Source: Squalus acanthias (Eukaryota). From it: a DNA stretch of 34,005 bases. The notes below the pieces were generated by a model, which ran no database searches, had not been told where the DNA came from, and saw nothing but the letters and a program-made list of their open reading frames with translations. Below, one piece after another: positions 4,319-34,005 of this stretch. Numbering within the stretch: position 1 is the stretch's first letter; every line of letters begins with the position of its first letter. The position numbers and the translations under genes were made by a program. The stretch is from contig JASTWF010000336.1 of assembly GCA_030390025.1 (NCBI GenBank), positions 496,001 to 530,005 on the forward strand. The letters run 5' to 3'.

Positions 4319-4723
4319 ACAGAGTATGAGAGACAGACAGGTACAGAATGAATTCCACACTCTATACAGGACCAGAAAATGATAGAGACAAAATGAATCC
4401 CACTCTGATACAGCGTATTAAAGATTGACTGATACAGCATGAATCTCACGCTCACACATAATACCAGAGACTAACAGATACAGAATGTATCTCACTGTCA
4501 CATACAGTACCAGATAGTGACAGAGAGAATTAAACTAACTCTCACATACAGTATCATAGACTGACAGGTACAGAATAAATCCCAAACTCGCATGCCATAC
4601 CAGGAATTGACAGATATAGAATAAATCTCAATCTCACATACAGTATCACAGATTGGCAGAGAGAGAGAATGAATCTCACACTGACACAGAGTATCAGAGG
4701 ATGACAGACACAGAATTAATACA
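4319..4723 (+). repeat. Satellite array (about 46-bp unit), continuation
   Basis: Same CAGAGACTGACAGATACAGAAT...CTCACATACAGTA units as 1025-2713. Confidence 0.88.
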
Positions 4724-5597
4724 GAAAGCACTGCTCCCTCCGCGACACCCTGGTCCACTCCTCTATCACCCCTAACACCCCTTCCCCTTCGCCCGGCACC
4801 TTCCCGTGCAAGCGCAGGAGATGCAACACCTGCCCTTCTCCCTCCACCCTTCCTACTGTCCGGGGCCCCAAACACTCCTTCCAGGTGAAACAGCGATTTA
4901 CTTGTACTTCTTGCAATTTAGTATACTGCATTCCCTGCTCACGATGCGGTCTCCTCTACACTGGGGAGACCAAACGCAGATTGGGTGAGCACTTTGCGGA
5001 ACACCTCCGTTCAGTCCGTAAGGGTGACCCCGAGCTTCCGGTGACCTGTCACTTTAATTCTCCGCTCCGCTCCGCTCCCACTCAGACCTCACCGTCCTCG
5101 GCCTCTTACACTGTTCCAATGAAGCTCAACGTAAGCTCGAGGAACAGCACCTCATCTTTCGATAAGGCACTTCACAGCCTTCTGGACTCAACATCGAGTT
5201 CAACAATTTCAGACCATAACCTTTTTTTCCCATTTTTTTATCTCTCTCTCCCACATGGCAGCTGTCTTTCATTCTACCAGTGCCATTTACACTTCATCTA
5301 GAGCCATCTTTTGTTTCTTAACTTGTCCCATTACCATCTCCTTTTGCCTTGCACCATCTCTTAATCTCTCTCAATGTCTCTTAATCTCTCCTGCCTTCCA
5401 TCCTATCACAGTCCTTCCCATTTGTTCTTTCCTCCCCTCTCCCTTTTCCCTGCCCCTGCACTTGCTTAAAAACCTGTTCCATCTCCAGTTTTTTCCAGTT
5501 CTGACGAAGGGTCATCGACCTGAAACGTTAACTCTGTTTCTCTCTCCACAGATGCTGCCTGACCTGCTGAGTATTTCCAACTTTTTCTGTTTCTATT
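4724..5597 (+). mobile_element. 5'-truncated Penelope-like retroelement: GIY-YIG endonuclease C-terminus plus terminal repeat
   Basis: Encodes FTCTSCNLVYCIPCSRCGLLYTGETKRRLGEHFAEH, a PLE-type GIY-YIG with CxxC. Bounded by a 14-bp direct repeat ACAGAATTAATACA at 4710-4723 and 5598-5611. Contains a hammerhead core. Confidence 0.88.
5497..5533 (+). ncRNA. Minimal type I hammerhead ribozyme in the Penelope-like element
   Basis: AGTT-[CTGACGA]-AGGGTC ATC GACCT-[GAAA]-C-GTT-AACT: conserved cores, stem II with one bulge, stem I AGTT/AACT, and palindromic AACGTT in place of a full stem III. Confidence 0.8.
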
Positions 5598-6445
5598 ACA
5601 GAATTAATACACATTTGTATACAGTACCAGAAAATTATAGAAAAAATTAACCACACATTAAAGACTGATTGGTACAGAATGAATCTCACTCTCACGTACA
5701 GCACCAGAGATTGACAGATATATAATTACTCTAACACACACCTACAGAACATAGACTGACAGACAGAGAATTATTCTCACGCTGACACAGAGTATCAGAG
5801 CCCATGACAGATACAGAATGAGTACACAATCATATGCAGTACGATTGATTTACAGATCGATTCAGTGCCACACTGACAAAGTACCAGATACTAGCAGAAA
5901 TGGAATGAATCTCAAACTAACATCAAGTACCAGAGACTGATAGATACAGTACGAATCCCACATTCATAAACCGAGTGAGTAGCAGATTCATGTGGAATCC
6001 TTTGCTGAAATACAGTACCAGAGACAGACTGATTCAGAACTAATCTGACACTAACATACAATACCAGAGACTGACTGATAGAGAATGAATCACACACTCA
6101 CACACAGTACCAGAGACTGACAGATACAGAATGAATCTCAGACTCGCACGGCCCAGTGACAGACAGATAAAGAATTAATTTCACACACACATACAGTACC
6201 AGAGAATGACAGATTCAGAATGAATCCCAACACTGTCACACGGTACCAGAGTCTGTCGGATACAGATGGAATCCCACCCTGACACATGGTACCAGTGACG
6301 GACAGGAAACGAATGGATCCCACACTCCGAGTGTAACAGAGACTGAGATTGAGAATGATCCCCACATTTACATAAATCACCAGAGACTGAGTGATACAGA
6401 ACTATTCCCACACACACAGTACTGGAGACTGACAGATACTGAACT
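5598..6445 (+). repeat. Satellite array (about 46-bp unit), more diverged continuation
   Basis: Recurrent AGTACCAGAGACTGACAGATACAGAATGAATC units. Confidence 0.85.
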
Positions 6446-6447
6446 AA

Positions 6448-6831: not shown

Positions 6832-7209
6832 ATGGTTGATGAAAAGAAGAAACCAGTTGCCAAGAAGGGCGCCAAGAAAACCGTCACTAAACCGGCAGCG
6901 AAGGGCGGCAAGAAGCGCAGAAAGTCGAGGAAGGAGAGTTACTCCATCTACATCTACAAAGTGATGAAGCAGGTTCACCCCGACACCGGCATCTCCTCCA
7001 AGGCCATGAGCATCATGAACTCGTTTGTGAACGATATTTTCGAGCGCATCGCGGGTGAGGCTTCCCGCCTGGCCCATTACAACAAGCGGCACACCATCAG
7101 CTCCCGGGAGATCCAGACCGCCGTGCGCCTGCTGCTGCCCGGGGAGCTGGCCAAGCACGCCGTGTCGGAAGGGACAAAGGCGGTGACCAAATACACCAGC
7201 TCCAAGTAA
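6832..7209 (+). CDS. H2B: Histone H2B, replication-dependent, 125 aa
   Basis: [27 protein letters not shown]...AVTKYTSSK. The true ATG is at 6832 (the ORF track starts at an upstream TTG). Intronless, with a downstream stem-loop. Confidence 0.98.
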
Positions 7210-10234: not shown

Positions 10235-10279
10235 AAAAGAAGGCTTTCGATAAGGTCCTGCATAAGAGATTAGCGTGCA
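10235..10279 (+). mobile_element. CR1 RT fragment (KAFDKVLHKRLA), left of Tx1 copy A
   Basis: AAGGCTTTCGATAAGGTCCTGCATAAGAGATTAGC; the CR1 reading resumes at 14503 with GAGATTAGC. Confidence 0.7.
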
Positions 10280-13200
10280 CTCTTTTAATTTGGGTGGTTA
10301 ACCAAATAAACTGTAAATCAATAAAACTTTAAATAAACCTTAACAAATTAAATTAAAATTTGGTAGCCCGGGTGACGATGCACTCCAGTCCCCGCGGCGC
10401 CCACTGGTCGCGGAAAAACTCAAGCGTGCCGGCGGACACCGCTTGCTCCATCTCCAGGGCCACCCAGGCGCGAACATGACCGTGGAAAAGAGGCAGGCAA
10501 TCGGGCCGAACGACCCCCTCGACCGCCCGCTGCCTGGACCAATTAATGGCTTTTTTAGCCAGGCCCAGGAGCAGTCCTACGAGGAGGTCCTCCGACCTGC
10601 CCACTCCCCTCCGCACCGGGTGACCGTAGATCAGGAGCGTGGGGCTGAAGTGCAACAAAAAATCGAGGAGCAGCCCCTTCAAATAATGAAAGAGGGGCTG
10701 CAACCTCTCACACTCTGTATAAACGTGAAAGACGGACTCCTCCAGGCCGCAAAAATGGCAAGCAGCCTGGGAGTCCGTGAACCTATTTAAAAACCATATT
10801 GCACGGGACTGCTCCGTGCAACACCCTCCAGGCCAAGTCCCCAATAGAACAAGGGAAGACTCCCGCGTAGAGAGCCCTCCATTGGGGAACTTCACCTCCG
10901 CCGGACGGCAGGATGGTACGCCAAGGCATGTCCAGATGGCAGACGAAGATGGCAAAGTGGATAGTGTGCAGGAGCAGCCCGTACAGGAAACACCTCCATG
11001 CGGAATGAAAGGGCACGGAGGGCATTTCTCCGAGAAGGCTCAAGTGGTGAGGCGGTGGCTCCCGAGGGAGGATTCGGGGCCGGGCGCCGATGAGGAATTC
11101 CGTCCGAACGGAGGTCAGCTCGGACGGGATCGCCCCACGTGCTTGAGCCTCCTCGATACACCTAGTGGAGTCGGGGCCCAGTGCCATTTTTAGCGACTCG
11201 ATGGCTTTGACCGCGAGCCGGACGTTGACCCAAGACATGCGCCTCACCAGCTCCTCCGGCGCCATCCAGCCCGCTCCTCCACCACCGAGCAGGTCCCCGA
11301 CTCTAGTCACCTTACCGGGCACAGCCCTGCCCTCCGCCAGCCATCCGAACCCGCGGTCGTGGAGGTGCGGATTCCTGAGCAGCGGCTCCCAAAGGACGGC
11401 CGCCACTCCTGACGGGGGAGAACTGTGCTCGGAGGCGACGCTGTTCCAAACCCATAGCAGTTCCTGGTAGAAGACAGGCAGCTCCTGCAGGCAGGCACGT
11501 GTGCCGCCCACTCTCATAAACAAGAGCTGCGTGTCGTAATTGAGGCCGTGCAGCTGGCGGAAGAAATACGTCGCCAGCGCATGCCACCTAGGAGGATTCT
11601 CCATGTACAGGTACCTCTGCAGCGTCTGAAGACGGAAAGTTGCCGCCTGGGTGCGAAGGCACACCAGCGCCTGACCGCCCTCCCTAAGCGGGAGACTCAG
11701 AACCGCGGCAGAGACCCAGTGCTTCCTTTTGTCCCAGAAGAAGTCGACGAGCTTCTTCTGCATCTTGGTGACAAACGCAGGGGGAGGGTTCAAAGTGACC
11801 AACCGGTACCACAACATACATAGATACATAGATACATAGAAGATAGGAGCAGGAGTAGGCCAGCCGGCCCTTCGAGCCTGCTCCGCCATTTAATGAGATC
11901 ATGGCTGATCCTCCAATTCAGTATCCCGTCCCCCGCCTTCTCTCCGTAACCCTTAACCCCTTTTGCCTGTAGAAATATATCTAATTCCCTCTTAAATATA
12001 TTTAATGAGCTGGCGTACACTGCCCTCTGTGGCAATGAGTTCCACAGGTTCACCACCCTCTGAGTGAAGAAATTCCCCCTCATTTCTGTCCTAAATGGTT
12101 TAGCCCTTATCCTTAAATTATGTCCTCTAGTTCTGTTCTCACCCGCCAAGGGAAACATTCCTTCTGCATGTAGTCTGTCTAGACCTGTCAGAATTTTATA
12201 CACTTCTATGAGGTCCCCTCTCAATCTTCTAAACTCCAGTGTGTACATCCCTAAACTACATAGTCTCTCCTCATAGGTCAATCCCGCCATTCCTGGTATC
12301 AGCCTGGTGAATCGCCGCTGCACCCCCTCCATGGCAAGAACATCTTTCCTCAGATGAGGCGACCAAAACTGTACACAGTACTCGAGGTGTGGTCTCACCA
12401 GTGCCCTGTACAGCTGCAGCAAGGTATCCCTGTTCCTGTATTCCAACCCTTTTGCTATGAAGGCCAGCATACCGTTTGCCTTCTTGACCGCCTGTTGCAC
12501 CTGCATGCTCGCCTTCAGTGACTGGTGTACAAGAACACCCAGGTCTCTCTGTACTTCCCCCTCTCCCAATTTATTGCCATTTAAATAATAATTTGCCCTC
12601 CCGTTCCTGCACCCAAGGTGGATAACTTCGCACTTGTCCACATTATAGTGCATCTGCCATTTATCCGCCCAATCACCCAGTCTGTCCAAATCGCTCTGGA
12701 GCTTCCTGGTCTCCTCCTCTGAGCCCACCCCCCCTCCTAGTTTAGTGTCGTCTGCAAATTTGGAAATGCTGCATCCGACTCCCTGATCCAGGTCATTAAT
12801 GTAAATTGTGAACAGCTGGGGACCCAGGACAGATCCCTGCGGTACCCCACTTGTTACTGCCTGCCATTCAGAAAATGAGCCGTTTATTCCAACTCTCTGT
12901 TTCCTATCTGACAGCCAGTTCTCTATCCACGTCAATACTTTCCCCTTTATCCCATGAGCTTCAATTTTCCATGCTAATCTTTTATGTGGGACCTTGTCGA
13001 AGGCCTTTTGGAAGTCCAGGTACACCACATCTACTGGCTCTCCCCCATCTATTTTATCAGTTACTCCCTCAAAAAATTCCAATAGATTAGTCAAGCACGA
13101 TTTACCCTTTGTAAATCCATGTTGACTCTGTCCTATCCTGTCCCCATTTGCTAAGTGCTCCGCTATTTCATCCTTAATGATGGACTCCAGCATTTTGCCC

Positions 13201-14502
13201 ACAACTGATGTAAGGCTTACAGGTCTGTAATTACCTGCTTTTCCCCTACCCCCCTTTTTGAATAGTGGGGTAACGTTAGCTACCCTCCAATCCATGGGCA
13301 CTGTTCCCGAGTCTAATGAATTCTGAAAAATCATACTTAGTGCATCCGCTATCTCTAGGGCCACCTCCTTCAGTACCCTAGGATGCATGTTATCAGGCCC
13401 TGGGGATTTGTCCGCCTTCAATCCCTTTAGCTTCCTTAACACCATATCCTTAGAGATATTGATTTGCGTCAGTTCCTCCTTTGCCAATGTCCCTATTTTT
13501 CCCGATATCCCAGGGAGGTTTTTTGTGTCTTCCTTCGTAAAGACTGACCCAAAGTATGCATTTAGTTGGTCTGCCATTTCCTTATTTCCCGTTATATATT
13601 CCCCCGTATCTGACTGCAATGGACCAACTTTGGTTTTCACCAGTCCTGTGTAGGAGAACACTCGGAGCAGTCCTGTCCAGCACCCTAGGCGAGCGGTGAC
13701 TTTGGCCTCCAGCTCTTGCCAGTTCGCCGGCCAGGCATCCTCGGCGGGGCTGAGGTAGACTCCCAAGTAGAGGAGGTACGTGGTGCTCCAGGCGAAGGGC
13801 CTGAACTCCTCCGGCAGGGAGTCCACCCGCCACAGGCCCACCAGGAGTCCAGAACATTTCTCCCAGTTGATCCTGGCAGAGGATGCGTCCAAGTAAATCT
13901 GCTGGCATTCTCGCATCCTCCGCAAGTCAACGGGATCCGTGACCGCGAGGAGCACATCATCGGCGTAAGCCGAGAGGACGACCTCCACGCCCGGCCCTTG
14001 CAGAGCCAGTCCCATCAACCTCTTCCGCAAGAGGCGCAGGAAAGGCTCCACGCAAACGGCGTATAACTGACCGGACATGGGGCATCCCTGATGCACCCGC
14101 CTCCCGAAGCGAAGGGGCGCCGTCAAAGACCCGTTAACTTTAATCAGACACTCCGCAGCGGCGTACAGAAGTCGGATCCGGGCGACGAAATGCGTCCCGA
14201 ACCCGAATGCGCGCAGAGTCACGAAAAGATACTCGTGATCCACCCTGTCGAACGCCTTCTCCTGATCCAGGGAAAGGAAGGCGACCGACAGACCAGCCCT
14301 CTGGGAATGGTGGACCAGGTCCCAGACAGATGGATGTTGTCGTGGATGCTCCGGCCCGGGACCGTGTAGGACTGGTCGGGGTGGTCCATGTGGGCCAGCA
14401 CGGTGCCCAAGGCGAGTAGACATAGCCATGGCAAAAATTTTGTAGTCCATGCTGAGGAGGGAGACCGGGCGCCAGTTCTTAAGTAGGCGGAGATCGCCCT
14501 TC
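10280..14502 (-). mobile_element. Tx1-like non-LTR retrotransposon copy A, 5'-truncated within ORF2, interrupted by a CR1
   Basis: NWRPVSLL, DQEKAFDRV, QGCPMS and YADD motifs plus C-terminal CHFC..H..C. Colinear with 27777-30208. Short 3' UTR ending AAAAGAG. Confidence 0.92.
11818..13648 (-). mobile_element. Young 5'-truncated CR1 LINE nested in Tx1 copy A, RT frame uninterrupted
   Basis: Open frame LVKTKVGPL...NYRPVSLT...KAFDKVPH...QGSVLGP...FADDTKL...KGVKGYG and an (ATCTATGT)n tail at 11818-11840. Confidence 0.95.
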
Positions 14503-15077
14503 GAGATTAGCAGGTAAAGTTAAGGCACATGGGATTGGGGGCAAGGTATTGACTTGGATAGAGAACTGGTTGGCGGACAGAAAGCAGAGAGTAGGAATTA
14601 ATGGTCTTTTTCAGAGTGGCAGGCAGTGACTAGTGGGGTACCGCAGTGATCGGTCCTTGGACCCCAGCTATTCACAATATACATTAATGATCTAGATAAG
14701 GGAACTAAATGTAATACCTCCAAGTTTGCTGATGACACAAAGCTGGGTGGGCGTGTGTGCTGCGAAGAGGGTACCGAGAAACTCCAGGATGATTTGGACA
14801 GGTTGTGTGAGTGGGCAGAAGCGTGGCAGATGCAATATAACGTGGATAAATGTGAGGTTATCCACTTTGGTGTCAAAAACAGAAAGGCAGTCTATTATCT
14901 GAATGGCAATAGATTGGGAGAAGGGGAAGTGCAACGAGACCTGGGTGTCCTTGTGCACCAGTCGCTGAAGGTAAGCATGCAGGTGCAGCAGGCGGTGAAG
15001 AAGGGAAATGGTATGTTGGCCTTCATAGCGAAAGGGTTTGAGTATAGGAACAGGGATGTCCTGCTGCAGTTGTACAG
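14503..15077 (+). mobile_element. CR1 RT fragment, right of Tx1 copy A, 3'-truncated
   Basis: RLAGKVKAHGIGG...SGVPQ*SVLGP...FADDTKL...VLLQLYR, then an abrupt junction to the 56-bp repeat. Confidence 0.9.
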
Positions 15078-15081
15078 AAAT

Positions 15082-15137
15082 GAGAAGTCGCACAACACCA
15101 GGTCATAGTCCAACAGCTTTATTTGAAATCACAAGCT
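15082..15137 (-). repeat. Left arm of a 56-bp inverted repeat (partner 30223-30278)
   Basis: The reverse complement matches 30223-30278 with 3 mismatches in 56. Confidence 0.9.
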
Positions 15138-15527
15138 TGTGGTGAGCAGCAGCAGCAGAGTGGTGGTCTCTGTGAGCAGGAAGAGGAGAAGGAGAAGGAG
15201 ACAGCAGACCACAACCAACAACCACTACTGAGGTGCCTGGAGAGAGAGGACAGGAGAGGAGAAAGAAAAGAAGGAAAGGAAGGCCAAGGCCATAACAACA
15301 GAGGAGAGGCCTTTCCACACTGCCTCCTCAATTGGCCTCCATTTTAGGAGAGGGAGAGAGGGGAGAAAACAACAAAACATCCATCATCTGTTTGGAAGGA
15401 GGAAGGAAGGAAAGAACAACAGCTACAGGTGGGTGTGATTCTGGTGCACTCTCCCAGAGACTTTGTTTTGTAGGTGGGGGGAGGAAAGAAGAAAAAGAAG
15501 AAGGCCGGAACATCCAAGGGGTGTGTG
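15138..15527 (+). mobile_element. Distal 5' UTR of Tx1 copy C, separated from its body by copy B
   Basis: Homologous to the reverse complement of about 22950-23340 (5' UTR of copy B), and colinearity continues at 23484 after the duplicated GGGGTGTGTG. Confidence 0.85.
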
Positions 15528-15814
15528 AATCTTTTATTCAAACCAATAATACAAATTACATAGTAAAACCATTACATTCATCCATCAAAATACAGTACAA
15601 ATACCCCCAAACAGTACCACACTTTTTTTTTATATTAAAATAATACATCTCACTTAACTCCACATAAAACAACCCATTTCAACACCACAGTGTACAAACA
15701 CATAGCACCATCACAATCCAACTAAATGCCACATATAACATCCACTCCAATAACCCAAGAAACCTGTTCCGCGCCAGTCCCACTGGCACCACCCACCCGA
15801 CCATCCACTCAATT

Positions 15815-16400
15815 GTTCTCCGTGCTGGGCCTCCCGCCCAGGCCACTCTCCTCCGGGTCTTCCACCTTGGGCCTTCTGCACCGGACCCTCCGCACCGGCA
15901 TTCCCCGCGAGCAGCCGGGGTGAATCAACCGCATCTCCCGACTCCACCTCTGCCGACCAGCCGCCCCGCCCTGGGCCCCCCGCCTGGGGTTCTCCGTGCT
16001 GGGCCTCCCGCCCAGGCCACTCTCCTCTGGGTCTTCCACCTTGGGCCTTCTGCACCGGACCCTCCGCACCGGCATTCCCCACGAGCACCCGGGGTGAAGC
16101 AACCGCATCTCCCGACTCCACCTCTGCCGACCTGCCGCCCCGCCCTGGGCCCCCCGCCTGGGGTTCTCCGTGCTGGGCCTCCCGCCCAGGCCACTCTCCT
16201 CTGGGTCTTCCACCTCGGGCCTTCTTCACCGGACCCTCCGCACCGGCATTCCCCGCGAGCACCCGGGGTGAAGCAACCGCATCTCCTGACTCCACCTCTG
16301 CCGACCAGCCACCCCGCCCTGGGCCCCCCGCCTGGGGTTCTCCGTGCTGGGCCTCCCGCCCAGGCCACTCTCCTCCGGGTCTTCCACCTTGGGCCTTCTG
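15815..16400. repeat. 174-bp GC-rich tandem repeat, about 3.4 copies, in the 3' UTR of copy B
   Basis: GTTCTCCGTGCTGGGCCTCCCGCCCAGG starts at 15815, 15989, 16163 and 16337. Confidence 0.95.
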
Positions 16401-16423
16401 CGAAGCGGACAACTTGGAGTGCA

Positions 16424-19400
16424 TTAAATTAAAATAACATTTCCCGGGGAAACGATGCACTCCAGTCCCTGCGGCGCCCACCGGTCTCGGAAGGCTTCAA
16501 GTGTGCCGGCGGACACCGCATGCTCCATCTCCAGGGCCACCCGGGCGCGAACATAGCCGCGGAAGAGAGGTAGGCAATTGGGCTGAACGACCCCCTCGAC
16601 CGCCCGCTGCCTGGACCTGTTAATGGCCACTTTGGCCAGGCCCAGGAGCAGTCCTACGAGGAGGTCCTCCGACCTGCTCTCTCCCCTCCGCACCGGGTGA
16701 CCGTAGATCAGGAGCGTGGGACTGAAGTGCAACCAAAAAGCGAGGAGCAGCCCCTTCAAATATTCAAAGAGGGGCTGCAACCTCTCACATTCCACATAAA
16801 CGTGGAACACGGACTCCTCGAGCCGCAAAAATGACAGGCGGCCTGGGAGTCCGTGAACCTACTTAAAAACCGATTGCACGGGACTGCTCCGTGCAACACC
16901 CTCCAGGCCATGTCCCCAATAGAAAAGGGGAGTACTCCCGCATAGAGAGCCCTCCATTGGGGACCTTCGCCTCCGCCGGACGGCAAGATGGCACGCCAAG
17001 GCGTGTCCGGACGGCAGGCGAAGATGACAAAGTGGAAAGTGTGCAGGAGCAGCCCGTACAGGAAACCCCTCCGTGCAGAACTGAAGGGCACGGAGGGCAT
17101 TTCCCCGAGACGGCTCAAGTTGTGAGGCGCCGGTTCCCGAGAGGGGTTTCGGGGCCGTGCGCCGATGAGGAATTCCGTCCGAACGGAGGTCAGTTCGGAC
17201 GGGATCGCCCCACGTGCTTGAGCCTCCTCGATACACCTAGTGGAGTCCGGGCCCAGTGCCACTTTCAGCAACTCGATGGCTTTGGCCGCGCGCCAGACGT
17301 CTACCCAGGAGAGGCGCCGCGCCAACTCCTCCGGCGCCATCCAGCCCGCTCCTCCGCCATCGAGCAGGTCCCTGACTCTGGTCACCTTGCCTGGCACAGC
17401 CCTGCCCTCCGCCAGCCAGCCGATCCGTCGGACGTGGAGGTGCGGATTCCTGAACAGCGGCTCCCGAAGGAGAGCCGCCACTCCTGACGGGGGAGAACTC
17501 CGCCTGGAGGCGACCTGGTTCCAGACCCATAGCAGTTCCTGGTAAAAGACAGGCAGCTCCCACAGGTAGGCTCGCGTGCGGCCCAATTCCACAAACAGGA
17601 GCTGCGTGTCGTAGTTGAGGCCGTGCATCTGGCGGAAGAAATACGTCGCCAGCGCACACCATCTGGGAGGATTCTCGACGTAAAGGTACCTCTGCAGCGT
17701 CTGAAGACGGAAAGTCGCCGCCTGGGTGCGAAGGCACACCAGCGCCTGACCGCCCTCCCTAAGCGGGAGACACAGAACCGCGGCAGAGACCCAGTGCTTC
17801 CTTTTGTCCCAGAAGAAGTCGATGAGCATCTTCTGTATCTTGGCGACAAACGCAGGGGGAGGGATCAAAGTGACCAACCGGTACCACAACATGGCGGCCA
17901 CCAGCTGGTTTATGACCAGCGCTCGACCCCTGTAGGACAACACTCGGAGCAACACCGTCCAGCGTCCTAGGCGAGCGGTGACCTTGGCCTCCAGCTCTTG
18001 CCAGTTCGCCGGCCAGGTGTCCTCGGCAGGGCTGAGGTAGACTCCCAAGTAGAGGAGGTGTGTTGTGCTCCAGGCGAAGGCCTGAACTCCTCCGCAGGGA
18101 GTCCACCCGCCACTGGCCCACCAGGAGTCCAGAACATTTCTCCCAGTTGATCCTGGCGGAGGATGCGTCCGAGTAAATCTGCTGGCATTCTCGCATCCTC
18201 CGCAGGTCGACGGGATCCGTGACCATGAGGAGCACGTCATCGGCGTAAGCCGAGAGGACCACCTCCACGCCCGGCCCTTGCAGAGCCAGTCCGTCAACCT
18301 CTTCCGCAAGAGGCGCAGGAAAGGCTCCACGCAAACGGCATATAACTGACCGGACATGGGGCATCCCTGACGCACCCCCCTCCCGAAGCGAAGGGGCGCC
18401 GTCAAAGGAACACCGTTAACTTTAATCAGACACTCCGCGGCGGCGTACAGAAGTCGGATCCGGCGACGAAATGCGTCCCGAACCCGAATGCGCGCAGAGT
18501 CCCGAAGAGGAACTCGTGATCCACCCTGTCGAACGCCTTCTCCTGATCCAGGGAAAGGAAGGCGACCGACAGACCAGTCTCCTGGGAAAGGTGACCAGGT
18601 CCTGACCAGATGGATGTTGTCATGGATTGTCCGGCCCGGGACCGTGTAGGAGCCTGGTCGGGGTGGATCATGTGGGCCAGCACGGTGCCGAGGCGGGCAG
18701 AACATGGCCCTGGCAAAAATGTTATAGTCCGTGCTGAGGAGGGAGACCGGGCGCCAAGTTTTTTAAAAGGCGGAGATCACCCCTCTTGGGCAGCAGGACG
18801 ATAACCGCCCTGCGCCAAGAGAGGGGCATCTCCCCGGTCGCCAGACTTTCCCCCAGGACCCGCGCGTAGTCGCCCCCCAAGACGTCCCAGAACGCCCTGT
18901 GGAATCCACGGTCAGCCCGTCCAGCCCCCGGGGGACTTTCCCCTCGAGAGCTGGCGCAGGGCGCCGGTCAGCTCCGCCAAACTTAGCGGAGCGTCCAATT
19001 CCTCGGCGCCCTCCGGGCCGACCTTCGGCAGGTCCTCCCACAAAACTCTGCGCGCATCCTCGCTGGACGGATCCGGAGAGAACAGGCCCCGTAATAGGCC
19101 CGGGTCCCCGCGCTGATCCCCTCCGGATCCGAGACCAGAGATCCGTCGTCGGCCAGCAGCCCCAAGAGCTGCTTACGGACCCCTCGTCTTTTTTCCAGCG
19201 AGTAGAAGAAGGGGGAGCCGCGGTCCAGGTCCCGCAGGAACTGGATCCGCGACCTCACGTACGCGCCTCGGGACCCGACCAGCTGCAGGTCCTTCAGCGC
19301 GCCCTTCTTCTCTTCGTACACCTTCCGCAGGGCCGGGTCTTCGACGACTTGACCGAGACGGGACTCCAGGTCGAGCACTTCTTTCTCCAATCGCCCGACC

Positions 19401-20319
19401 CGGGCCTCCCGCCTCTTGGTCGACCCCTTCGCGTACTCCTGACAGAAGAGACGGACGTGAGCCTTGCCCACGTCCCACCATAGCCTCAAGGAGGGGAAGC
19501 CCCCCTGCTTCCTTCTCCAGTCGGCCCAGAACCGGCGAAACGAATCCCGGAACCGCACGTCCTCCAGCAGCAGGTTGTTAAAATGCCAGTACGCGGACCC
19601 CCCCGGCGCCTGCAACGGAGCGAGCTCCGCCCACACCAGGTGGTGGTCCGTGCACGGCACCGGCCGCATGGAAGCCGCCGGAACGCAGGAGACGTACGCC
19701 CGGGAAATATAAAGGCGGTCGATTCTGGACCTTCCTCCTCCAGACCCCACCCAAGTGAAGGCGCTGGAGTCGGGATGGAGATTTCGCCAGACGTCCAACC
19801 AAGTCGAAGGACCCGACCAGGTCCCCTCAACTTCACCGTCGCCGTCAGGCTTCGCGGAGGCCCGAACGGTCCCCGCCTCGAGGGTACAATTAAAATCCCC
19901 CCCGAGGATGATGCACTCGCCGACGTCGACGGTGCCCAGAGAGCGGACACTTCATCGAAGAAGCGCACTTGCTGCGCACCGGGCTGGGGGGGCGTACACT
20001 GTTCACTAAATGAGCGGCACGCCCCCCAGACGAACAGTGACCTGGAGCAAGCGGCCCGGCACATGCTCCTTGACCCCCAAGATCTCCGGCTGAAAATGCG
20101 GGGCAGCAAGATAGCCACCCCACCGGAAACGTTGGAGAGGTGACTCATGCTGACCCTCCTCGCCATCCCAGAGCCACGTGCCTCGTCTCCCGGAACGGTG
20201 TGAGTTTCCTGCAGGAAGCACACCGCATGCCTCCCTTCCCGAAGGGACGAGAAGTTATTAAATCTACGGCGTGCCTCTTTGCTGCCGTTGATGTTGAGGC
20301 TGGCTATGGTTATCTTCAT
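16424..20319 (-). pseudogene. Tx1 copy B ORF2 (APE endonuclease, RT, zinc finger), many frameshifts as assembled
   Basis: MKITIASLNING...LQETH, SRIDRLY, TDH, YADD and C-terminal CHFC..H..C are spread across several frames. Confidence 0.88.
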
Positions 20320-20344
20320 GACAAGAGCATAGTGCAACTCTACC

Positions 20345-22440
20345 TTACTCTAACGGGAGAGGGAGCGCGGCCGCTAGTCGACCGCCACTCCCTCCAAGCC
20401 CAGCGAGGAATTCTGGATCCGACGCCGCTCGGCCAGGCCCACGCCCCCGTCCGCGCCCATGGATTTGAATGCGGCGCGGACGGAGCAAAAACGAGCAGCG
20501 CCAGATCCGACCATTTACGATGGCCAGCCGGATTATATCCTGGCGACCCTGGCCCATGGCCACAAAGTCCCCGGAGTTCCACAACGGGGATGAGGGGGGA
20601 CCCGGAGGAGGGCACGAGGGCATCCGCCGCCTCACTGGCGACGATTCCAATCATCCACAGTGTCCTCCGCCGGGTCCGCGTCCTCCTCCGGGGGGTTCGC
20701 CATCGGCCAGCCCTACCTCTGCCCCGATCCAACCCCCAGGATCGGCAGCAGAGGAGTCCTCCCTGGGCTTCTCTCAGAGGCGCCGGGTCAGGAAGCGGCG
20801 GCGGCTCGGGGCACCCCCTCCGCCCCCGGCACCGGGGTGCACAGGGGAAACCGGGGAGCACATTAGTGCCAGTTCCCTCAACAACCCCGGCGCCAGCGTC
20901 CACACGGAGTCAGGGGGCCTTCCCCTTCACCGCCACCATCCTCCGACCCAGCGGACCAGGTACCCTGGTTATATTGCTCAACCAGGTCGAGCAGTGCCTG
21001 GGAGTGGTCCTGACCGTACACGGCGGGCTCTGCCTCATCGGCCTCGCCCGCCCCGGTCCCCAGGATGCCCGACCTGGCGAGAAACAACGGATCAGCGTAA
21101 CTCCCCACCGCGGGTAGTTCCGCGGCCCCCCCCCCCATGAGCAGGGCCTCTCCCCCATCCCCGGGAGGCACAGGCTGGACAGACTCATCTGTCATGCCCT
21201 CCCGGGGGACAGGCGACCCCTGCCGGATGTCGGTGATGGTGTCGGTGGGGGGGGGCGCAGCACCCGCGGCGGGCAACGACTCCCCTTGCGAGTGGGGACC
21301 CCGTTCCTCGCGGTCCTCCCCCTCATCCAGGATGTCGCGCCTCCTTTTCGAAGAGGAGGGACACGAAGGTTGGGAGACCTCCATGCATACCGAGGCCTCC
21401 ACCTCCGCTCCCCCCTGTCGATCGGTCTGCTCGGGGGTCCCGGGCCCGGTCACGGCCGCAGGTCTCGATTTTGCCGCCTTGGCGGATGCGGCCGCAGGCC
21501 CGGGCACAAGGTCCCTCGCATTCTCGAACTCCGCCGCCACCCGCGCAAGGTGTAGGGGCGTAAGCTCGGGTAAGTCATCATATATGTGAAGGGGACCCGC
21601 CTGAAGGTGTTTGCTTTTCCTCCGCGCCTTCCTTCCAGTCGGACGCTCCCCCTCCCCTTCGCCGGAGGCCGCGACGGCGTTGACCTCCGGCGTCGACCGC
21701 GCATCGGGTGTCGCAGACGCGCGGACAGAAACAGGGGGAGGAGCGGCGGCGGCGCCAGCCTTGGCCGCCTCAGATGCTTTGGCGGCCTTGGAGGCGGGGC
21801 AGTTCTTTCTTATGTGCCCCACCTCCTTACAGGCGTGGCACCGCACACCGTCCGACGTCCAGAAGACGCGGTAGGCGGTCCCCTCGTGTGTTATGCTAAA
21901 TGCGCCTTCCGTGTCTTCCTCCCGCGCCAGCTGGATAAACAGCTGGCGCCGGAAGGAGAAGACGTGCCGGAGGCTGGCCTCCCTGCAGCCGAGCGGGATC
22001 GGATTAATCCCCGACCTCACCTCCCCCAGTTGACGTAGGTGGGGGAGGAGGAGCTCAACCGGAACAAAGGGCGGGACATTCGATAGTATGAGTCGCTGCT
22101 CGGTGGCCTCGAGCGGATCCACCGGCAGGAAGGTCCCGCCCACGGTGAGCCCCTCGGTGACGGCCAGGGACACCGCCCGCTCCGACCGCAGGAAGAACAC
22201 AGCCTTACCGTACATTTTAGAGGCCGCAACGATGGCTGAGGGGCCGACTACCCCAGCCATGGCTTTGACGCAAGCCTCTATGGTCATGTTGGGGTGAGTG
22301 TAGCTCTTCACCCCCAGCTTTTTTGTCAATAGCCTGAAAGGCGACGGGGCAGCAGAAGCAGCGGGACCAGCTGTGGCCGTGGCTGCCACACCCGCGTACG
22401 ACCTTGCTTGCCCCGCCGCCGGCGAAGATGTGCTCGCCAT
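20345..22440 (-). pseudogene. Tx1 copy B ORF1 (CCHC zinc knuckle), frameshifted in the 3' part as assembled
   Basis: MASTSS...SYAGV...LSNVPPF...CHACKEVGHIRKNC; homologous to 24059-26214. Confidence 0.88.
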
Positions 22441-22646
22441 ACTGAGGTGGTATAAAGGGCTACACCCACCCCAAGTCACAGGCCGGGTGACGTTTAAGTG
22501 GCCTTGGGCTTTTTTGTCTTTTCCCCCGAGCAGAGGGGGGGTTTTGAGAAAAAGAAGGCACACCTCTCCCTTTTATGATTGGAATTGGGAGTGGCCTTCT
22601 CCCCTCTGCTCAATTGGGTAATAAATAAGGTTTGAGGTGCCTCGTT

Positions 22647-22677
<31 letters not shown>

Positions 22678-24058
22678 GTGGGAAGGAGGAAGGGGGAAGG
22701 CCGCACGGGCCTTTTCGCCCTCAGGATAGTGGGTGGGTGGGTGCCTGCTGGGGGGGGGCACTCTTCGATGATAAATAAAGTCTTTGTTGATGTTCTTCTG
22801 GTGGGGGGAGAAGATGTCTTCACCTGGGAAAAAATAAAGCTGGAGATGCCCAGGCTCAGTCCACAACCAGGTCTTAACAATGTTCTAAAATGTGAAGCAA
22901 TAGGCAAGGGGTGCTTGTTGATGGTGTGTGTGGCCGAGTCATTAGCAAGAGCCACACACACTCCCCTTGCTATCCCGGTCTTCTCCTTCTTCTTTCCTCC
23001 CCCCACCTCAAATACAAAGTCTTTTGGAGAGTGCCCTTTTTAACACCCACCTCTCGATGTTGTTTTCCTTCTCGATGGCTCGCTCTCCCTCCTTCCAAGC
23101 AGATGTTGGTCTTGTTCTCCCCTCTCTCCCTCTCTCGTAATGGAGACCAGTTGGGGAGGCAGTGATGGAAAGGCTTCCCTCTGTTGTTGTTGCTGGTCTC
23201 CTCTCTCTCCTCTCTCTCTCCTCTCCTCTCTCTCCTCTCTCACCTCAGCAGCAGTCGTGGTTGTAGCTGTAGCTGCAGGCGTGGTGGAGGTGGAAAGGTC
23301 TCCACTCTGTCCTTCGTGGCTCCTTCTCCTTCTAGGCACAGAGAAAAGAGACCTCTCCTTTCCCCTCCTCTTCTCAGCAAACGGCGCTCACCCGTTCACG
23401 CAGCACCGAGTTGAGCTGAGTCCCTCGCAGCCTCAGCCTCAGCCTCCGTCTGTCCTCGCCTGGGACCGCACTCGGGGTGTGTGTGTGTGTGGCTTCTGTA
23501 AAAGCTAGGCCGCACACACCATATTAAACACCCCTTTCCCATTGCCTGACCTGGGACAGCTGGAGCTGCCGAGGTGAAGTCCCCAATTCAAACAACATCT
23601 AATTGGGCATCGTTAAGACCTGGTGCAGGACTGAGCCTGGGCATCTCCAGCTTTCCCAGGTGAAGACATCTTCTCCCCCCACCAGAAGACCACCACCAAA
23701 GACTTTTATTTACATCGGAGAGTGTACCCCCCCTGCCAACACCCACCCACCCACCATCCTGAGTGGCGACCCTGCCCTTGCGGCTTCCCTCCTTCCCACC
23801 CCCCCTCTCTCTCTCTCTTTGTCTCTTGTCTCTCTCTGCCTCTCTCTCGAAGAGGCACCTCAAATTACTTTTAATTAAGTACCCATTGAGCAGAGGGGAG
23901 AAGGCCCCTCTCCTAATTAATTCACATAAAGGGAGAGGTGTGCCTTCAATTTAAGAGCTCCCTCTGCTCAGGGGAAAACAAAAACAAAAAACCAGAGGCC
24001 ATTAACATCTTCAGGCCTGTGACTTGGGGTGAGTGTAGCCCTTAAAGACCCGTCCATT

Positions 24059-26214
24059 ATGGCGAGCACATCTTCGTCGGTGGCGGGGGCAGCGAGGACG
24101 TATGCGAGCGTGGCAGCCGCGGCCACGGCCGCAGCCACGAGTCCTCCTGTTACCCCGTCACCTTTTACCCTCCTTACGAGGAAGAATGGGATCAAGAGCT
24201 ACACTCACCCCAATATGACAATAGAGGCGTGCGTAAAAGCCATGGCTGGGGTTGTCGGCCCTTCAGCCATCGTCGCCGCCTCTAAAATGTACGGCAAGGC
24301 TGTGTTCTTCCTGGGGTCGGAGCGGGCGGTGTCCCTGGCCATCGAGAAGGGGCTCACCGTGGGCGGGACCTTCCTGCCGGTGGACCCCCTTGAGGCCACC
24401 GCGCAAAGGATTGTGGTTTCCAACGTCCCGCCCTTTGTTCCGGGTGAGCTCCTCCTCCCCCACCTACGTCAACTGGGGGAGGTGAGGTCGGGGATCACAC
24501 CCATCCCGCTCGGCTTCCGGGAAGCCAGCCTTCGGCACGTCTTCTCCTTCCGGCGCCAGCTTTTCGTCCGGCTGGCGCGGGAGGAGGACGCGGACGGCGC
24601 GTTCACGGTGCTCCACGGGGGGACCGCCCACCGCGTCTTCTGGACCTCGGACGGCGTGCGGTGCTACGCCTGTAAGGAGGTGGGGCACGTCCGCAAAAAC
24701 TGCCCCGCCTCCAAGGCCGCCATGACACCTAGCGCGGCCAGGACTGGCGCCGCCGCCCCCCCTCCCCCTGATACTGTCCGCGCGTCGAAGACGACGGATG
24801 CGCGGTCGAAATCGGAGGCCAACACCATCACGGCCTCCGGCGGGGGGGAGGGAGAGCGTCCGAGGGGAAGGAAGGCGCTTAGAAAGAATAAACACCTAAG
24901 GGCGGATCCCCTCGTGGAGGAAACATCCGATTTGACCGAACTCACGCCCGAGTACATCGCGGAGTTGATCGGGACGCATGAGACTGGGGGGGTCCTCGTG
25001 CCCGGGCCCGTGACCGTGACCGCAACTGCCAAGGCAGCTAAATCAAGACCTGCGGCCGGGCTCGGGCCCGAGGGGCCCAAGAAACCCAGTCGTCGGAAGG
25101 GGGCAGAGAGGGAGGCCCCAGCAGACATGGAGGCCTCCCCCTCTCCGGGCCCCAACATGTTAAAAAGAAAGCTCCGCCCCCAGGAGGAGGAGGACTGTGA
25201 GGAGGAAGGTCCCTCCGCAGAAGGGGGGAGTCGCCCGCCGCGGGTGCTGCGCCCCACCCCACCCCCGTCATCGTCACGTGCGAGCGGCAGGGGTCGCCTG
25301 TCCCTCGGGAGGGTGAGACAGCCGAGTCTGTCCGACCTATGCCTCCCGGGGATGGGGAAGAGACCCTGCCCGTGGGGGGGGGCGCGGAACAACCCGCGGA
25401 AGGAAATGTAGTTCCGGAACCGTTGCTCCTCGCCGGGTCGGGCGTCCTGGGGACTGGGGCGGGCGAGGCCAAAGAGGCTGAAGCCGAGCCCGCCTTTTAC
25501 AACCCAGATATCTCCCAGGGACTGCTCGACCTGGTGGAGGAGTATAACAATCCCCAGCCCGCTGGGTCGGAGGTTGGTGGCGGGGAGACGGAAAGCCCCC
25601 TGACTCCGTCTCTGATGTTGGCGCCGGACGTACTGGAGGACTTTGAGATTATTTTCTCCCCGGTTTCTCCGGTCGCTCCGGCGCCTGAGGCGGGGGGGGG
25701 GCCCGAACCGCCGCCGCCTCCCGGCCCGGCGCCCCTGAAGGAGCCCAGGGTGGACTCCTCTGCCACCGATCCTGGGGGTGGGATCGTGACGGAGGCGGGG
25801 CCGGCCGGTGTGGCCGAGCCGTTCGCTGCACCCCGTGCGACGGACGGGTCGGCCGCCGGTGACGACCTCCCGGAGGAGGACGGGGACTCGGTGGTGGGCA
25901 TCGAGGACGATTTGGAGTCCATCGGCAGCGAGGTGATGGACGCCCTCGTGCCCTTCACCGACTCTCCCCTCATCCCCGTAGGGGAACTCCGGGATTTTAT
26001 GGCCGCGAGCCAGGGTCGTCACAAGAAGATCCGGCTGGCCCTCGACAAGTGGTCGGAGCTGGCGCTGCTCGTCGTGTCCGTCCGCGCCGCCGTTAAGATC
26101 ATGGGCGCGGACAAGGACGTTGGCCGGCTCGAGCTGCGTCGGCTCAAGAGTTTCCACACTGGGCTGCTGAGGGAGTGGCGGTCGTCAGTGACCGCGCTCC
26201 CTCCCCTCCGTTAG
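24059..26214 (+). CDS. Tx1 copy C ORF1 protein (zinc knuckle), one apparent frameshift near 25240-25260
   Basis: MASTSSSVAG...CYACKEVGHVRKNC, continuing in frame 25339-26214 (acidic, Pro-rich region) homologous to copy B. Confidence 0.85.
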
Positions 26215-26239
26215 GTAGAGGTTGCACTATGCTTCTGAG

Positions 26240-29200
26240 ATGAAGATAACCATAGCCAGCCTCAACATCAACGGCAGCAGGGAGGCGCGCCGTAGATTCA
26301 ATAACTTCTCGGTCCTTCGGGACGGGAAATATGCGGTGTGCTTCCTGCAAGAAACCCACACCGTTCCGGGAGACGAGGCCACGTGGCTCCTGGAGTGGCA
26401 AGGAGGGGTCAGCATGAGTCACCTCTCTAACAATTCCTGCGGGGTGGCTGTCTTGCTGGCCCCGCATTTTCAGCCGGAGATCTTGAGGGTCAAGGAGCAC
26501 GTGCCGGGCCGCTTGCTCCAGGTCACTGTTCGCCTGGGAGGCGTGCCGCTCCATTTAGTGAACGTGTACGCCCCCCGGACCGGTGCGCAGCAAGTGCGCT
26601 TCTTCGGAGAAGTGTCCGCTCTTCTGGGCTCCATCGACGTGGGCGAGTGCGTCATCCTCAGGGGGGATTTCAATTGTACCCTCGAGGCGCGGGACCGGTC
26701 GGGTCCCCCGCGAAGCCCGGCGGCGATGGAGAAGTTGCGGGACCTGGTCGGGTCCTTCGACTTGGTGGACGTCTGGCGAAATCTCCATCCCGACTCCAGC
26801 GCCTTCACGAGCGTGAGGTCTGGAGGAGGAAGGTCCAGAATCGACCGCCTTTACATTTCCCGGGCGTACGTCTCCTGCGTTCCGGCGGCTTCCATGCGGC
26901 CGGTGCCGTGCACGGACCACCACCTGGTGTGGGCGGAGCTCGCTCCGCTGCGCGCGCGGGGGGGGTCCGCGTACTGGCATTTTAACAACCTGCTGCTGGA
27001 GGACGCGCGGTTCCGGGATTCGTTTCGCCGGTTCTGGGCCGACTGGAGAAGGAAGCGGGGAGGCTTCCCCTCCTTGAGGCTATGGTGGGACGTGGGCAAG
27101 GCTCACGTCCGCGTCTTCTGTCAGGAGTACGCGAAGGGGTCGACCAAGAGGCGGGAGGCCCGGGTTGGGCGATTGGAGAAAGAAGTGCTCGACCTGGAGT
27201 CCCGTCTCGGTCAGGTCGTCGAGGACCCGGCCCTGCGGAAGGTGTACGAAGAGAAGAAGGGCGCGCTGAAGGACCTGCAGCTGGTCGGGTCCCGAGGCGC
27301 GTACGTGAGGTCGCGGATCCAGTTCCTGCGGGACCTGGACCGCGGCTCCCCCTTCTTCTACTCGCTGGAAAAAAGACGGGGGGTCCGTAAGCAGCTCTTG
27401 GGGCTGCTGGCCGACGACGGATCTCTGGTCTCGGATCCGGAGGGCATCAGCGCGGAGGCCCGGGCCTATTACGGGGCTCTGTTCTCTTCGGATCCGTCCA
27501 GCGAGGATGCGCGCAGAGTTTTGTGGGAGGACCTGCCGAAGGTCGGCCCGGAGGGCGCCGAGAATTTAGAAGCTCCGCTAAGCCTGGCGGAGCTGACCGG
27601 CGCCCTGCGCCAGCTCTCGAGGGGCAAGTCCCCGGGGCTGGACGGGCTGACCGTGGAGTTCCACAGGGCGTTCTGGGACGTCTTGGGGGACGACTACGCG
27701 CGGGTCCTGGGGGAAAGTCTGGCGACCGGGGAGATGCCCCTCTCTTGGCGCAGGGCGGTCATCGTCCTGCTGCCCAAGAAGGGCGATCTCCGCCTACTTA
27801 AGAACTGGCGCCCGGTCTCCCTCCTCAGCACGGACTACGAAATTTTCGCCAGGGCTATGTCTGCTCGCCTTGGCACCGTGCTGGCCCACATGATCCACCC
27901 CGACCAGTCCTACACGGTCCCGGGCCGGAGTATCCACGATAACATCCATCTGGTCCGGGATCTGGACCACCATTCCCAGAGGGCTGGTCTGTCGGTCGCC
28001 TTCCTTTCCCTAGATCAGGAGAAGGCGTTCGACAGGGTGGATCACGAGTATCTTTTCGGGACTCTGCGCGCATTCGGTTCGGGACGCATTTCGTCGCCCG
28101 GATCCGACTTCTGTACGCCGCCGCGGAGTGTCTGTTTAAAGTTAACGGGTCTTTGACGGCGCCCCTTCGCTTCGGGAGGGGGGTGCGTCAGGGATGCCCC
28201 ATGTCCGGTCAGTTATACGCCGTTTGCGTGGAGCCTTTCCTGCGCCTCTTGCGGAAGAGGTTGACGGGACTGGCTCTGCAAGGGCCGGGCGTGGAGGTGG
28301 TCCTCTCGGCTTACGCCGATGACGTGCTCCTCGCGATCACGGATCCCGTCGACTTGCGGAGGATGCGAGAATGCCAGCAGATTTACTCGGACGCATCCTC
28401 CGCCAAGATCAACTGGGAGAAATGTTCTGGACTCCTGGTGGGCCCATGGCGGGTGGACTCCCTGCCGGAGGAGTTCGGGCCTTTCGCCTGGAGCACCACG
28501 CACCTCCTCTACCTGGGAGTCTACCTCAGCCCGGCCGAGGACGCCTGGCCGGCGAACTGGCAACAGCTGGAGGCCAAAGTCACCTGTCGCCTAGGACGCT
28601 GGACAGGACTGCTCCGAGTGTTGTCCTACAGGGGTCGAGCGCTGGTCATAAACCAGCTGGTGGCCGCCATGTTGTGGTACCGGTTGGTCACTTTGATCCC
28701 TCCCCCTGCGTTTGTCGCCAAGATGCAGAAGAAGCTCGTCGACTTCTTCTGGGACAAAAGGAAGCACTGGGTCTCTGCCGCGGTTTTGAGTCTCCCGCTT
28801 AGGGAGGGCGGTCAGGCGCTGGTGTGCCTTCGCACCCAGGCGGCGACTTTCCGTCTTCAGACGCTGCAGAGATACCTGTACGTGGAGAATCCTCCTAGGT
28901 GGCGTGCGCTGGCGACGTATTTCTTCCGCCAGCTGCACGGCCTCAATTACGACACGCAGCTCCTGTTTGTGAGAGTGGGTGGCACGCGTGCCAGCCTGCG
29001 GGAGCTGCCTGTCTTCTACCAGGAACTGCTATGGGTTTGGAACAGCGTCGCCTCCGAGCGCAGTTCTCCCCCGTCAGGAGCGGCGGCCGTCCTTCGGGAG
29101 CCGCTGTTCAGGAATCCGCACCTCCACGACCGCGGGTTCGGCTGGCTGGCGGAGGGCAGGGCTGTGCCCGGTAAGGTGACCAGAGTCGGGGACCTGCTCG

Positions 29201-30137
29201 ATGGCGGAGGAGCGGGCTGGATGGCGCCGGAGGAGTTGGCGAGGCGCATGTCCTGGGTCAACGTCCGGCTCGCGGTCAAAGCCATCGAGTCGCTAAAAGT
29301 AGCACTGGGCCCCGTCTCCACTAGGTGTGTCGAGGAGGCTCAAGCACGTGGGGCGATCCCGTCCGAACTGACCCCCGTTCGGACGGAATTCCTTATCGGC
29401 GCCCGGCCCCGAATCCTCCCTCGGGAGCCGCCGCCTCACCACTTGAGCCTTCTCGGAGAAATGCCCTCCGTGCCCTTTCAATCCGCACGGAGGCGTTTCC
29501 TGTACGGGCTGCTCCTGCACACTCTCCACTTTGCCATCTTCGTCTGCCGTCCGGACACGCCTTGGCGTACCATCCTGCCGTCCGGCGGAGGCGAAGGTCC
29601 CCATTGGAAGGCTCTCTACGCGGGAGTCTTCCCTTGTTCTATTGGGGACTTGGCCTGAGGGTGTTGCACGGAGCAGTCCCGTGCAACAGGATTTTAAGTA
29701 GGTTTACGGACTCCCAGGCTGCTTGCCATTTCTGCGGCCTGGAGGAGTCCGTCTATCACATTTATATTGAGTGTGAGAGGTTGCAGCCCCTCTTTCATTA
29801 TTTGAAGGGGCTGCTCCTCAATTTCTGGTTGCACTTCAGCCCCACGCTCCTGATCTACGGTCACCCGGTGCGGAGGGGAGCGGGTAGGTCGGAGGACCTC
29901 CTCGTAGGACTGCTCCTGGGCCTGGCCAAGAAAGCCATTAATTGGTCCAGGCAGCGGGCGGTCGAGGGGGTCGTTCGGCCCGATTGCCTGCCTCTCTTCC
30001 GCGGCCATGTTCGCGCCCGGGTGGCCCTGGAGATGGAGCACGCGGTGCCCGCCGGCACGCTTGAGTTTTTCCGCGACCGGTGGGCGCCGCGGGGGCTGGA
30101 GTGCATCGTCACCCCGGACTTCCAAATTTTGATTTGA
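26240..30137 (+). CDS. Tx1 copy C ORF2 (APE endonuclease, RT, CCHC), about 1300 aa if two single-G deletions are corrected
   Basis: SLNING, LQETH, GDFN, SRIDRLY, TDH, KSPGLDG, DQEKAFD, RQGCPMS, YADD, CHFCGLEESVYHIYIEC. Frameshifts at about 28077 (TTCGGTT vs TTCGGGTT in A and B) and about 29656 (CCTGAGG vs CCTGGAGG). Confidence 0.9.
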
Positions 30138-30209
30138 TTTATTAAGTTTCATTTAAAGTTTTAATTGATTTACAGTAAATTTGGATTTTTTTGTCCAACC
30201 AAAAAGAGG

Positions 30210-30278
30210 AACACCAGGTTATAGCTCGTGATTTCAAATAAAACTGTTGGACTATAACCTGGTGTTGTGCGACTTCTC
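30210..30278 (+). repeat. Right arm of the 56-bp inverted repeat plus a local 15-bp hairpin
   Basis: 30223-30278 pairs with 15082-15137. AACACCAGGTTATAG (30210-30224) is the perfect reverse complement of CTATAACCTGGTGTT (30252-30266). Confidence 0.88.

Positions 30279-31687: not shown

Positions 31688-34005
<2,318 letters not shown>

Follow-up and report, generated by a model that had tools for sequence, protein, structure and literature searches.

In a 34,005-nucleotide stretch of Squalus acanthias DNA (contig JASTWF010000336.1, positions 496,001 to 530,005 of the forward strand; hereafter the window), a Tx1-like long interspersed nuclear element (LINE), copy B, very probably lies antisense within the 5' leader of a related element, copy C, which itself appears to occupy a Penelope-type terminal repeat. 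We favour, by a modest preference, the reading that sister subfamilies with different target preferences built this three-tier nest and that B has a preference for a short GT-rich motif with GTG at its end, not for (TG)n. The window consists mostly of repeats, and self-comparison resolves three Tx1-like copies (A, B and C).

Arrangement of copies B and C

15139-15527, plus strand: 5' leader of copy C, first part; aligns with the B leader from ~15211
15518-15527, plus strand: left target-site duplication GGGGTGTGTG; 15525-15527 may belong to the B 3' end
15528-23473, minus strand: copy B, Tx1 element, full extent, 7,946 bp
23474-23483, plus strand: right target-site duplication GGGGTGTGTG; start of the C leader hairpin (~23476-23520)
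23484-30209, plus strand: remainder of copy C, with leader, open reading frame 1 (ORF1) from 24059 (zinc knuckle), ORF2 at 26240-30137 in three frames and a short 3' untranslated region (UTR)

Exact copies of GGGGTGTGTG are confined to these two places in the window, with none on the other strand. The longest exact overlap of the two B junctions is 10 bp, for which base composition gives ~9e-7 per site, a value that overstates the case, as GGGGTGTGTG is of low complexity and lies within a TG tract. When B is excised and 15527 is joined to 23484, the C leader aligns with the B leader across the junction and on into ORF1; C starts at ~15139, and its first ~70 bases are not alignable with the first ~200 of B. 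With GGGGTGTGTG on both sides and a rebuilt leader colinear with that of B, the nested antisense insertion and duplication proposed in a first-pass annotation of this DNA are borne out. The same annotation had described a quasi-palindrome of roughly 15 kb: the inverted homology exists (16444-22882 against 23608-30117, 85.8% identity across 6,568 columns, the two arms lying ~725 bp apart), but it covers ~13.7 kb, and the palindrome is highly imperfect. B and C share 93% identity in ORF2 and 80% in the ORF1 region and, with unrelated 3' UTRs and arms at 85.8%, they are distinct Tx1 subfamilies. The three bases at 15525-15527 (CAC on the B sense strand) are also present in other B-type ends of public contigs and, because CAC may be B's own end, the true B duplication is 7-10 bp.

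The read evidence consisted of short-read contigs: 20 of the 22 runs listed contain part of the stretch, the best holding only 0.60 of its words, and the left junction was compared with four runs (X1, X2, X6 and X8 among them). Our contig statements cover the pieces listed, beyond which lie 12,852 further pieces. No listed contig bridges the left junction (15527/15528), which is what separate copies wrongly joined at the TG tract during assembly would give, and both the clustered one-base indels of B and the error-rich window end would suit such an artefact. Against it, the listing covers a subset of the pieces and the best run has 0.60 of the words, the same 10 bases stand at both junctions and removal of B restores a colinear leader. 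Moreover, a fold-back artefact would give near-identical arms, whereas these are only 86% alike and carry unrelated 3' UTRs, so the nest is very probably real and misassembly is highly improbable.

Copy B

15528-16425, minus strand: B 3' UTR, unrelated to the 3' UTR of A and C
16426-20319, minus strand: B ORF2, apurinic/apyrimidinic (AP) endonuclease and reverse transcriptase (RT), with many frameshifts in this assembly
20340-22440, minus strand: B ORF1, end approximate; frameshifted
22441-23473, minus strand: B 5' leader, 1,033 bp; hairpin at ~22961-22924; GGGGAGTGTG replaces GGGGTGTGTG

B is full-length in extent, as first described, but not intact as assembled, given the many frameshifts in ORF2. 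Between B ORF2 and C ORF2 there are 29 indels, 26 single-base and 3 two-base, and only 2 frame changes are needed to align C ORF2 with that of the Xenopus element Tx1L; therefore, most of the 29 lie in B. The ~27 one- or two-base indels of B ORF2 are clustered, add no stop codon within the compared segments and are probably sequence errors, because B must be younger than C. Divergence among the contig pieces listed fits this order of ages: the B 3' UTR shows 1-2 differences per ~100 letters from four of the five best X6 and X8 pieces and 8 in 75 from the fifth, and the C leader shows 2-6 letter differences plus gaps. Between 17000 and 20200 the one-base indels of B form two clusters, of 12 and 13, set apart by long clean stretches, which might resemble the error pattern near an inverted repeat.

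Read in the frame of C, B encodes the same AP endonuclease and RT domains; its ORF1 is homologous to C ORF1 and gave no family match in a profile search, and the ORF1 relatives comprise 8 proteins at 60-72% identity. The B 3' UTR contains, at 15815-16401, 3.4 copies (96%) of a GC-rich 174-bp unit that is absent from A, C and the rest of the window. The B 3' end had no exact match in metagenome and prokaryote contigs, and protein searches found no locus in viral or prokaryote contigs; metagenome protein matches (the best 80 of 465 loci) were all distant, at 22-38% identity, and were not used.

Target preference of B

The first-pass annotation had suggested that the family favours GT tracts, including the one in its own leader. 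The B site lies in a (TG)7 tract, which makes up 14 of the 7,115 bases of the rebuilt C and is the only (TG)4+ tract in the 961-bp C leader. The suggestion of a probably non-random site is supported. Three B 3'-end records were found among the contigs listed, and all three alignments begin at 15525, whereas a continuing TG repeat would align to at least 15521; therefore, CAC is kept in 3/3 and the next letters differ from the window. The one readable flank reads CAC-CCCAATCGC on the sense strand, which is not a CA repeat, and on the nicked strand it has GGGGTG in common with the window site. The record that holds it (depth 11.3) resembles two tandem B-type ends with 12 bases between them, which looks like a repeated hit at one site. 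In the X6 run, a contig of depth 74.5 (its neighbours have 79.3 and 90.9) extends 12 letters past CAC; with a depth so near that of its neighbours, most B ends in this run share further letters. An X1 contig (depth 62.7) extends 40 letters past the B end. Few as three records are, the listed B ends lean against a plain microsatellite target and towards a motif. A preference for (TG)n is thus not borne out, with 3/3 listed ends departing from the TG register and with A and C both in non-TG sites (a CR1-type fragment and a Penelope-type repeat, respectively). Nor does a single family with one GT-tract preference describe the locus: there are two subfamilies with different sites, and the motif in B's own leader is interrupted by an A.

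The host site of copy C

15074-15138, plus strand: left arm of a highly abundant repeat, whose other copies run on into hammerhead-core sequence; probable Penelope-type terminal repeat
15094-15108, plus strand: 15-bp site AACACCAGGT(C/T)ATAG, repeated directly after the C 3' end; probable target duplication of C
30210-30278, plus strand: the 15-bp site, then the Penelope-type repeat's right arm, inverted; the part of the repeat that would lie between its arms is missing

The left arm matches the right arm (30223-30278) as a 56-bp inverted repeat with 3 mismatches, and position 15104 is T in nearly all contig depth. Behind 15138, runs X1, X2 and X6 hold 45, 41 and 24 records with loose ends, respectively, whose consensus, in reverse complement and judged by eye, contains CTGACGA, a short stem and GAAA, the parts of a minimal hammerhead core. 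Minimal hammerhead cores are described for Penelope-like elements of fishes (PMC4209133; here and below, statements from cited sources rest on excerpts of them). On the strength of this core, we infer that the host of C is a Penelope-like terminal repeat; the core is not present in the window itself, and the window has no linked RT and GIY-YIG ORF beside the repeat. X1 and X2 each contain a single contig in which the repeat, at 15103, runs directly into the C leader at 15351, as a 5'-truncated on-target C copy would. On the nicked strand the C site is GT-rich (GGTGTT, then GTG), which hints at an ancestral target preference shared with B. We had also considered the C site as the centre of a palindrome (8-bp duplication plus filler), an option dropped since the 15-bp site starts exactly at the C end.

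Copy A

10275-14502, minus strand: copy A, 5'-truncated, 95% like C, inside a CR1-type RT fragment
10266-10274 and 14503-14511: 9-bp duplication GAGATTAGC of A

Within A lies the 3' half of a CR1-type element (11817-13649) with an 8-bp repeat tail, which replaces ~40 bases and shows no duplication. The 3' junctions of A, B and C (10275-10279, 15525-15527 and 30212-30214) all read AAAAGA, 2-4 bases and CAC on the sense strand.

Tx1 identity and lineage

The element is a member of the Tx1 clade and probably works like Tx1L. C ORF2 matches PF03372 and PF00078 (AP endonuclease and RT), and C ORF1 matches the zinc knuckle PF00098 (E = 1.3e-4, above the cut-off). Among the matches listed, the closest named ORF2 relatives are turtle elements (53-55%) and Xenopus Tx1L (53%), ahead of teleost elements (41-42%), and a stingray protein gives a 66% match. 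A quick tree was built from 35 rows: C, which alone represents the locus, and 34 ORF2 matches out of the 120 listed. In it, C, Tx1L and the turtle elements form a 6-row clade with a support of 98 in the Shimodaira-Hasegawa-like approximate likelihood ratio test (SH-aLRT), apart from the teleost clade. Both these domains and this grouping uphold the earlier assignment to Tx1. Target-site duplications measure 10 bp for B, 9 bp for A and probably 15 bp for C.

A possible mechanism

Target-primed reverse transcription is established for this class of elements. A C-type element would first have inserted at the 15-bp site of the Penelope-type terminal repeat, and a B-type element would later have inserted antisense 390 bp into the C leader by target-primed reverse transcription. 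The B AP endonuclease would nick the plus strand after GGGGTGTGTG, the free 3' GTG would pair with the CAC of the 3' junction, and a staggered second nick would produce the 7-10 bp duplication; a plus-strand nick at this position would explain both orientation and duplication. A conserved hairpin of the C leader would present the GT-rich motif in its 5' arm. In both leaders the TG tract forms the 5' arm of a hairpin (fold z = -4.83 for C and -2.44 for B), and the duplication leaves the whole C hairpin downstream of B. With 7.9 kb of antisense sequence parting its 5' end from its ORFs, C is presumably inactivated. The A-interrupted motif of the B leader, GGGGAGTGTG, recurs with the same letters in one X6 record from another organism, so B may avoid itself by way of this interruption.

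The endonuclease hairpins of B and C differ in 2 residues (TWVG versus TSVR). The Tx1L endonuclease is sequence-specific, and grafting of the hairpin loop alters target choice but does not by itself transfer specificity (PMC1950540). Non-synonymous codons between B and C number 24/222 in the endonuclease and 19/367 in the linker and early RT (p = 0.014), with 45/322 after the RT and 20/156 at the C-terminus; an accelerated change of the endonuclease was considered and rejected once the C-terminal half was counted.

A bolder version, which we regard as doubtful, makes B a one-way parasite of its sister C: descended from a Penelope-targeting ancestor, B would, with a changed endonuclease hairpin, aim at the 5' arm of an RNA hairpin that C-type leaders cannot afford to lose, and its own leader would escape through the one-base interruption. 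The upstream C leader could then drive a transcript folding into 6.5 kb of 86% double-stranded RNA, maybe silencing both subfamilies. The double-stranded RNA idea is weakened by seven plus-strand AATAAA/ATTAAA sites inside B, at which a read-through transcript could terminate prematurely. Mutual disabling of internal promoters, as suggested in the first-pass annotation, is conjectural here: between B and C, nesting in the window runs only from B into C, with no case of C in B.

Alternative readings

Several observations weigh against divided target preferences and a motif choice by B. A single B insertion is visible in full, with one more flank that can be read, and the GGGGTG they share is no rarity, occurring at 40 sites over both strands of the window. 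The two deeper flanks could represent a longer B 3' end, a common target or the same leader in another register. Across the whole of ORF2 the endonuclease is not specially divergent, and its region in B is rich in probable sequence errors. On the side of C, the joint between 15103 and 15351 has a 21-letter side and is flagged as weak, and the left 15-bp site is followed by 30 more repeat bases whose continuation on the right is missing, such that an extra deletion is needed. A, 95% like C, lies off the Penelope-type site, which points either to loose specificity or to A being a third subfamily.

The simplest alternative is that B has no real preference and landed by chance among crowded mobile elements, helped only by 3 bases of CAC/GTG microhomology. 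This is one locus in a window made mostly of repeats, with A off-target; (G/T)G(G/T)GTG occurs 149 times in the window, and the readable second flank has 2 matches in the window where 3.4 are expected by chance. However, close kin are target-specific, the deep contig keeps 12 common letters past the B end and the insertion hit the sole (TG)4+ tract of the C leader, and we consider chance unlikely. A shade less likely still is a true (TG)n microsatellite-targeting Tx1 family. The site does lie within a (TG)7 tract, and microsatellites are known targets, (TC)n and (TTC)n for the Tx1 families Kibi and Koshi and (TG)n for the fish element Togen of another clade; but none of the three listed B ends, a very small sample, continues as a CA repeat past CAC, and C groups with Tx1L, apart from the teleost clade, in a tree among whose rows Kibi and Koshi are not identifiable. 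A preference for hairpin DNA was also considered: B and C lie within inverted repeats, and A does not. For Tx1, a family counts as target-specific when > 20% of its flanks are of one kind (PMC4494074).

Neighbouring features of the window

6832-7209: intact H2B gene with its own histone stem-loop
7971-8282: intact H4 gene with its own histone stem-loop; threonine at position 2, where serine is usual
31715-32060: second H4 gene, 5' end cut by a CR1-type element, 3' stem-loop kept

An Rfam scan of the window returned the three histone stem-loops and two chance matches. A degenerate 41-46 bp tandem repeat forms three blocks (1020-2713, 4303-4720 and 5597-6447), and a CR1-type ORF at 33000-34005 has many small indels, which suggests low sequence quality at the window end.

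Comparison with known systems

That Tx1 elements target other mobile elements is already known; what appears to be new is the targets here, a sister leader and a Penelope-type repeat. A literature search (Tx1 with Penelope, with CA/GT repeats and in cartilaginous fishes), whose scope excludes Repbase and most subscription papers, returned no Tx1 in a sister leader or a Penelope repeat. Insertion of one LINE into another is familiar from Zepp of Chlorella, a self-nesting LINE that inserts into its own copies; the present case involves a sister subfamily, hit in its leader. With the microsatellite targeters Kibi, Koshi, Togen and Mino (the last of the R1 clade), B shares a site in a simple tract, here a dinucleotide one, but its other listed ends do not continue as CA repeats. 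Within Tx1, Kibi targets (TC)n and Koshi (TTC)n; Mino targets (AC)n (PMC3812793), and Togen, related to the NeSL clade, whose members use a restriction-like endonuclease, targets (TG)n (PMC4640811).

The nearest named system is Tx1L of Xenopus laevis (ORF2, YTX2, P0007), which likewise has two ORFs with AP endonuclease and RT, lands in another mobile element, the piggyBac-type Tx1D (PMC4494074), and resembles C at 53% ORF2 identity over 96% of the query and in its tree clade. It differs in its target, which here is a Penelope-type repeat for C and a sister LINE leader for B, and in the endonuclease hairpin, here 3 residues shorter. Crocodilian Tx1-Mar, Tx1-8_Crp, Tx1-4_AMi and Tx1-9_AMi are split among Mariner, long terminal repeat and Harbinger targets, and a partner short interspersed element shows tandem insertions around one duplication (PMC4494074). 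Compared by description only, these related families divide their target preferences as B and C appear to, whereas the excerpts of PMC4494074 report no other-Tx1 or Penelope-like target. If our preferred reading does not hold, the locus is a commonplace case of nesting in a histone region full of repeats; if it is true genome-wide, preference for a sister leader would be a clean case of competition among LINEs. Loop-grafting between distant elements did not settle how the target of an AP endonuclease changes (PMC1950540); B and C, with 93% ORF2 DNA identity and apparently different targets, lend themselves as a pair to this question.

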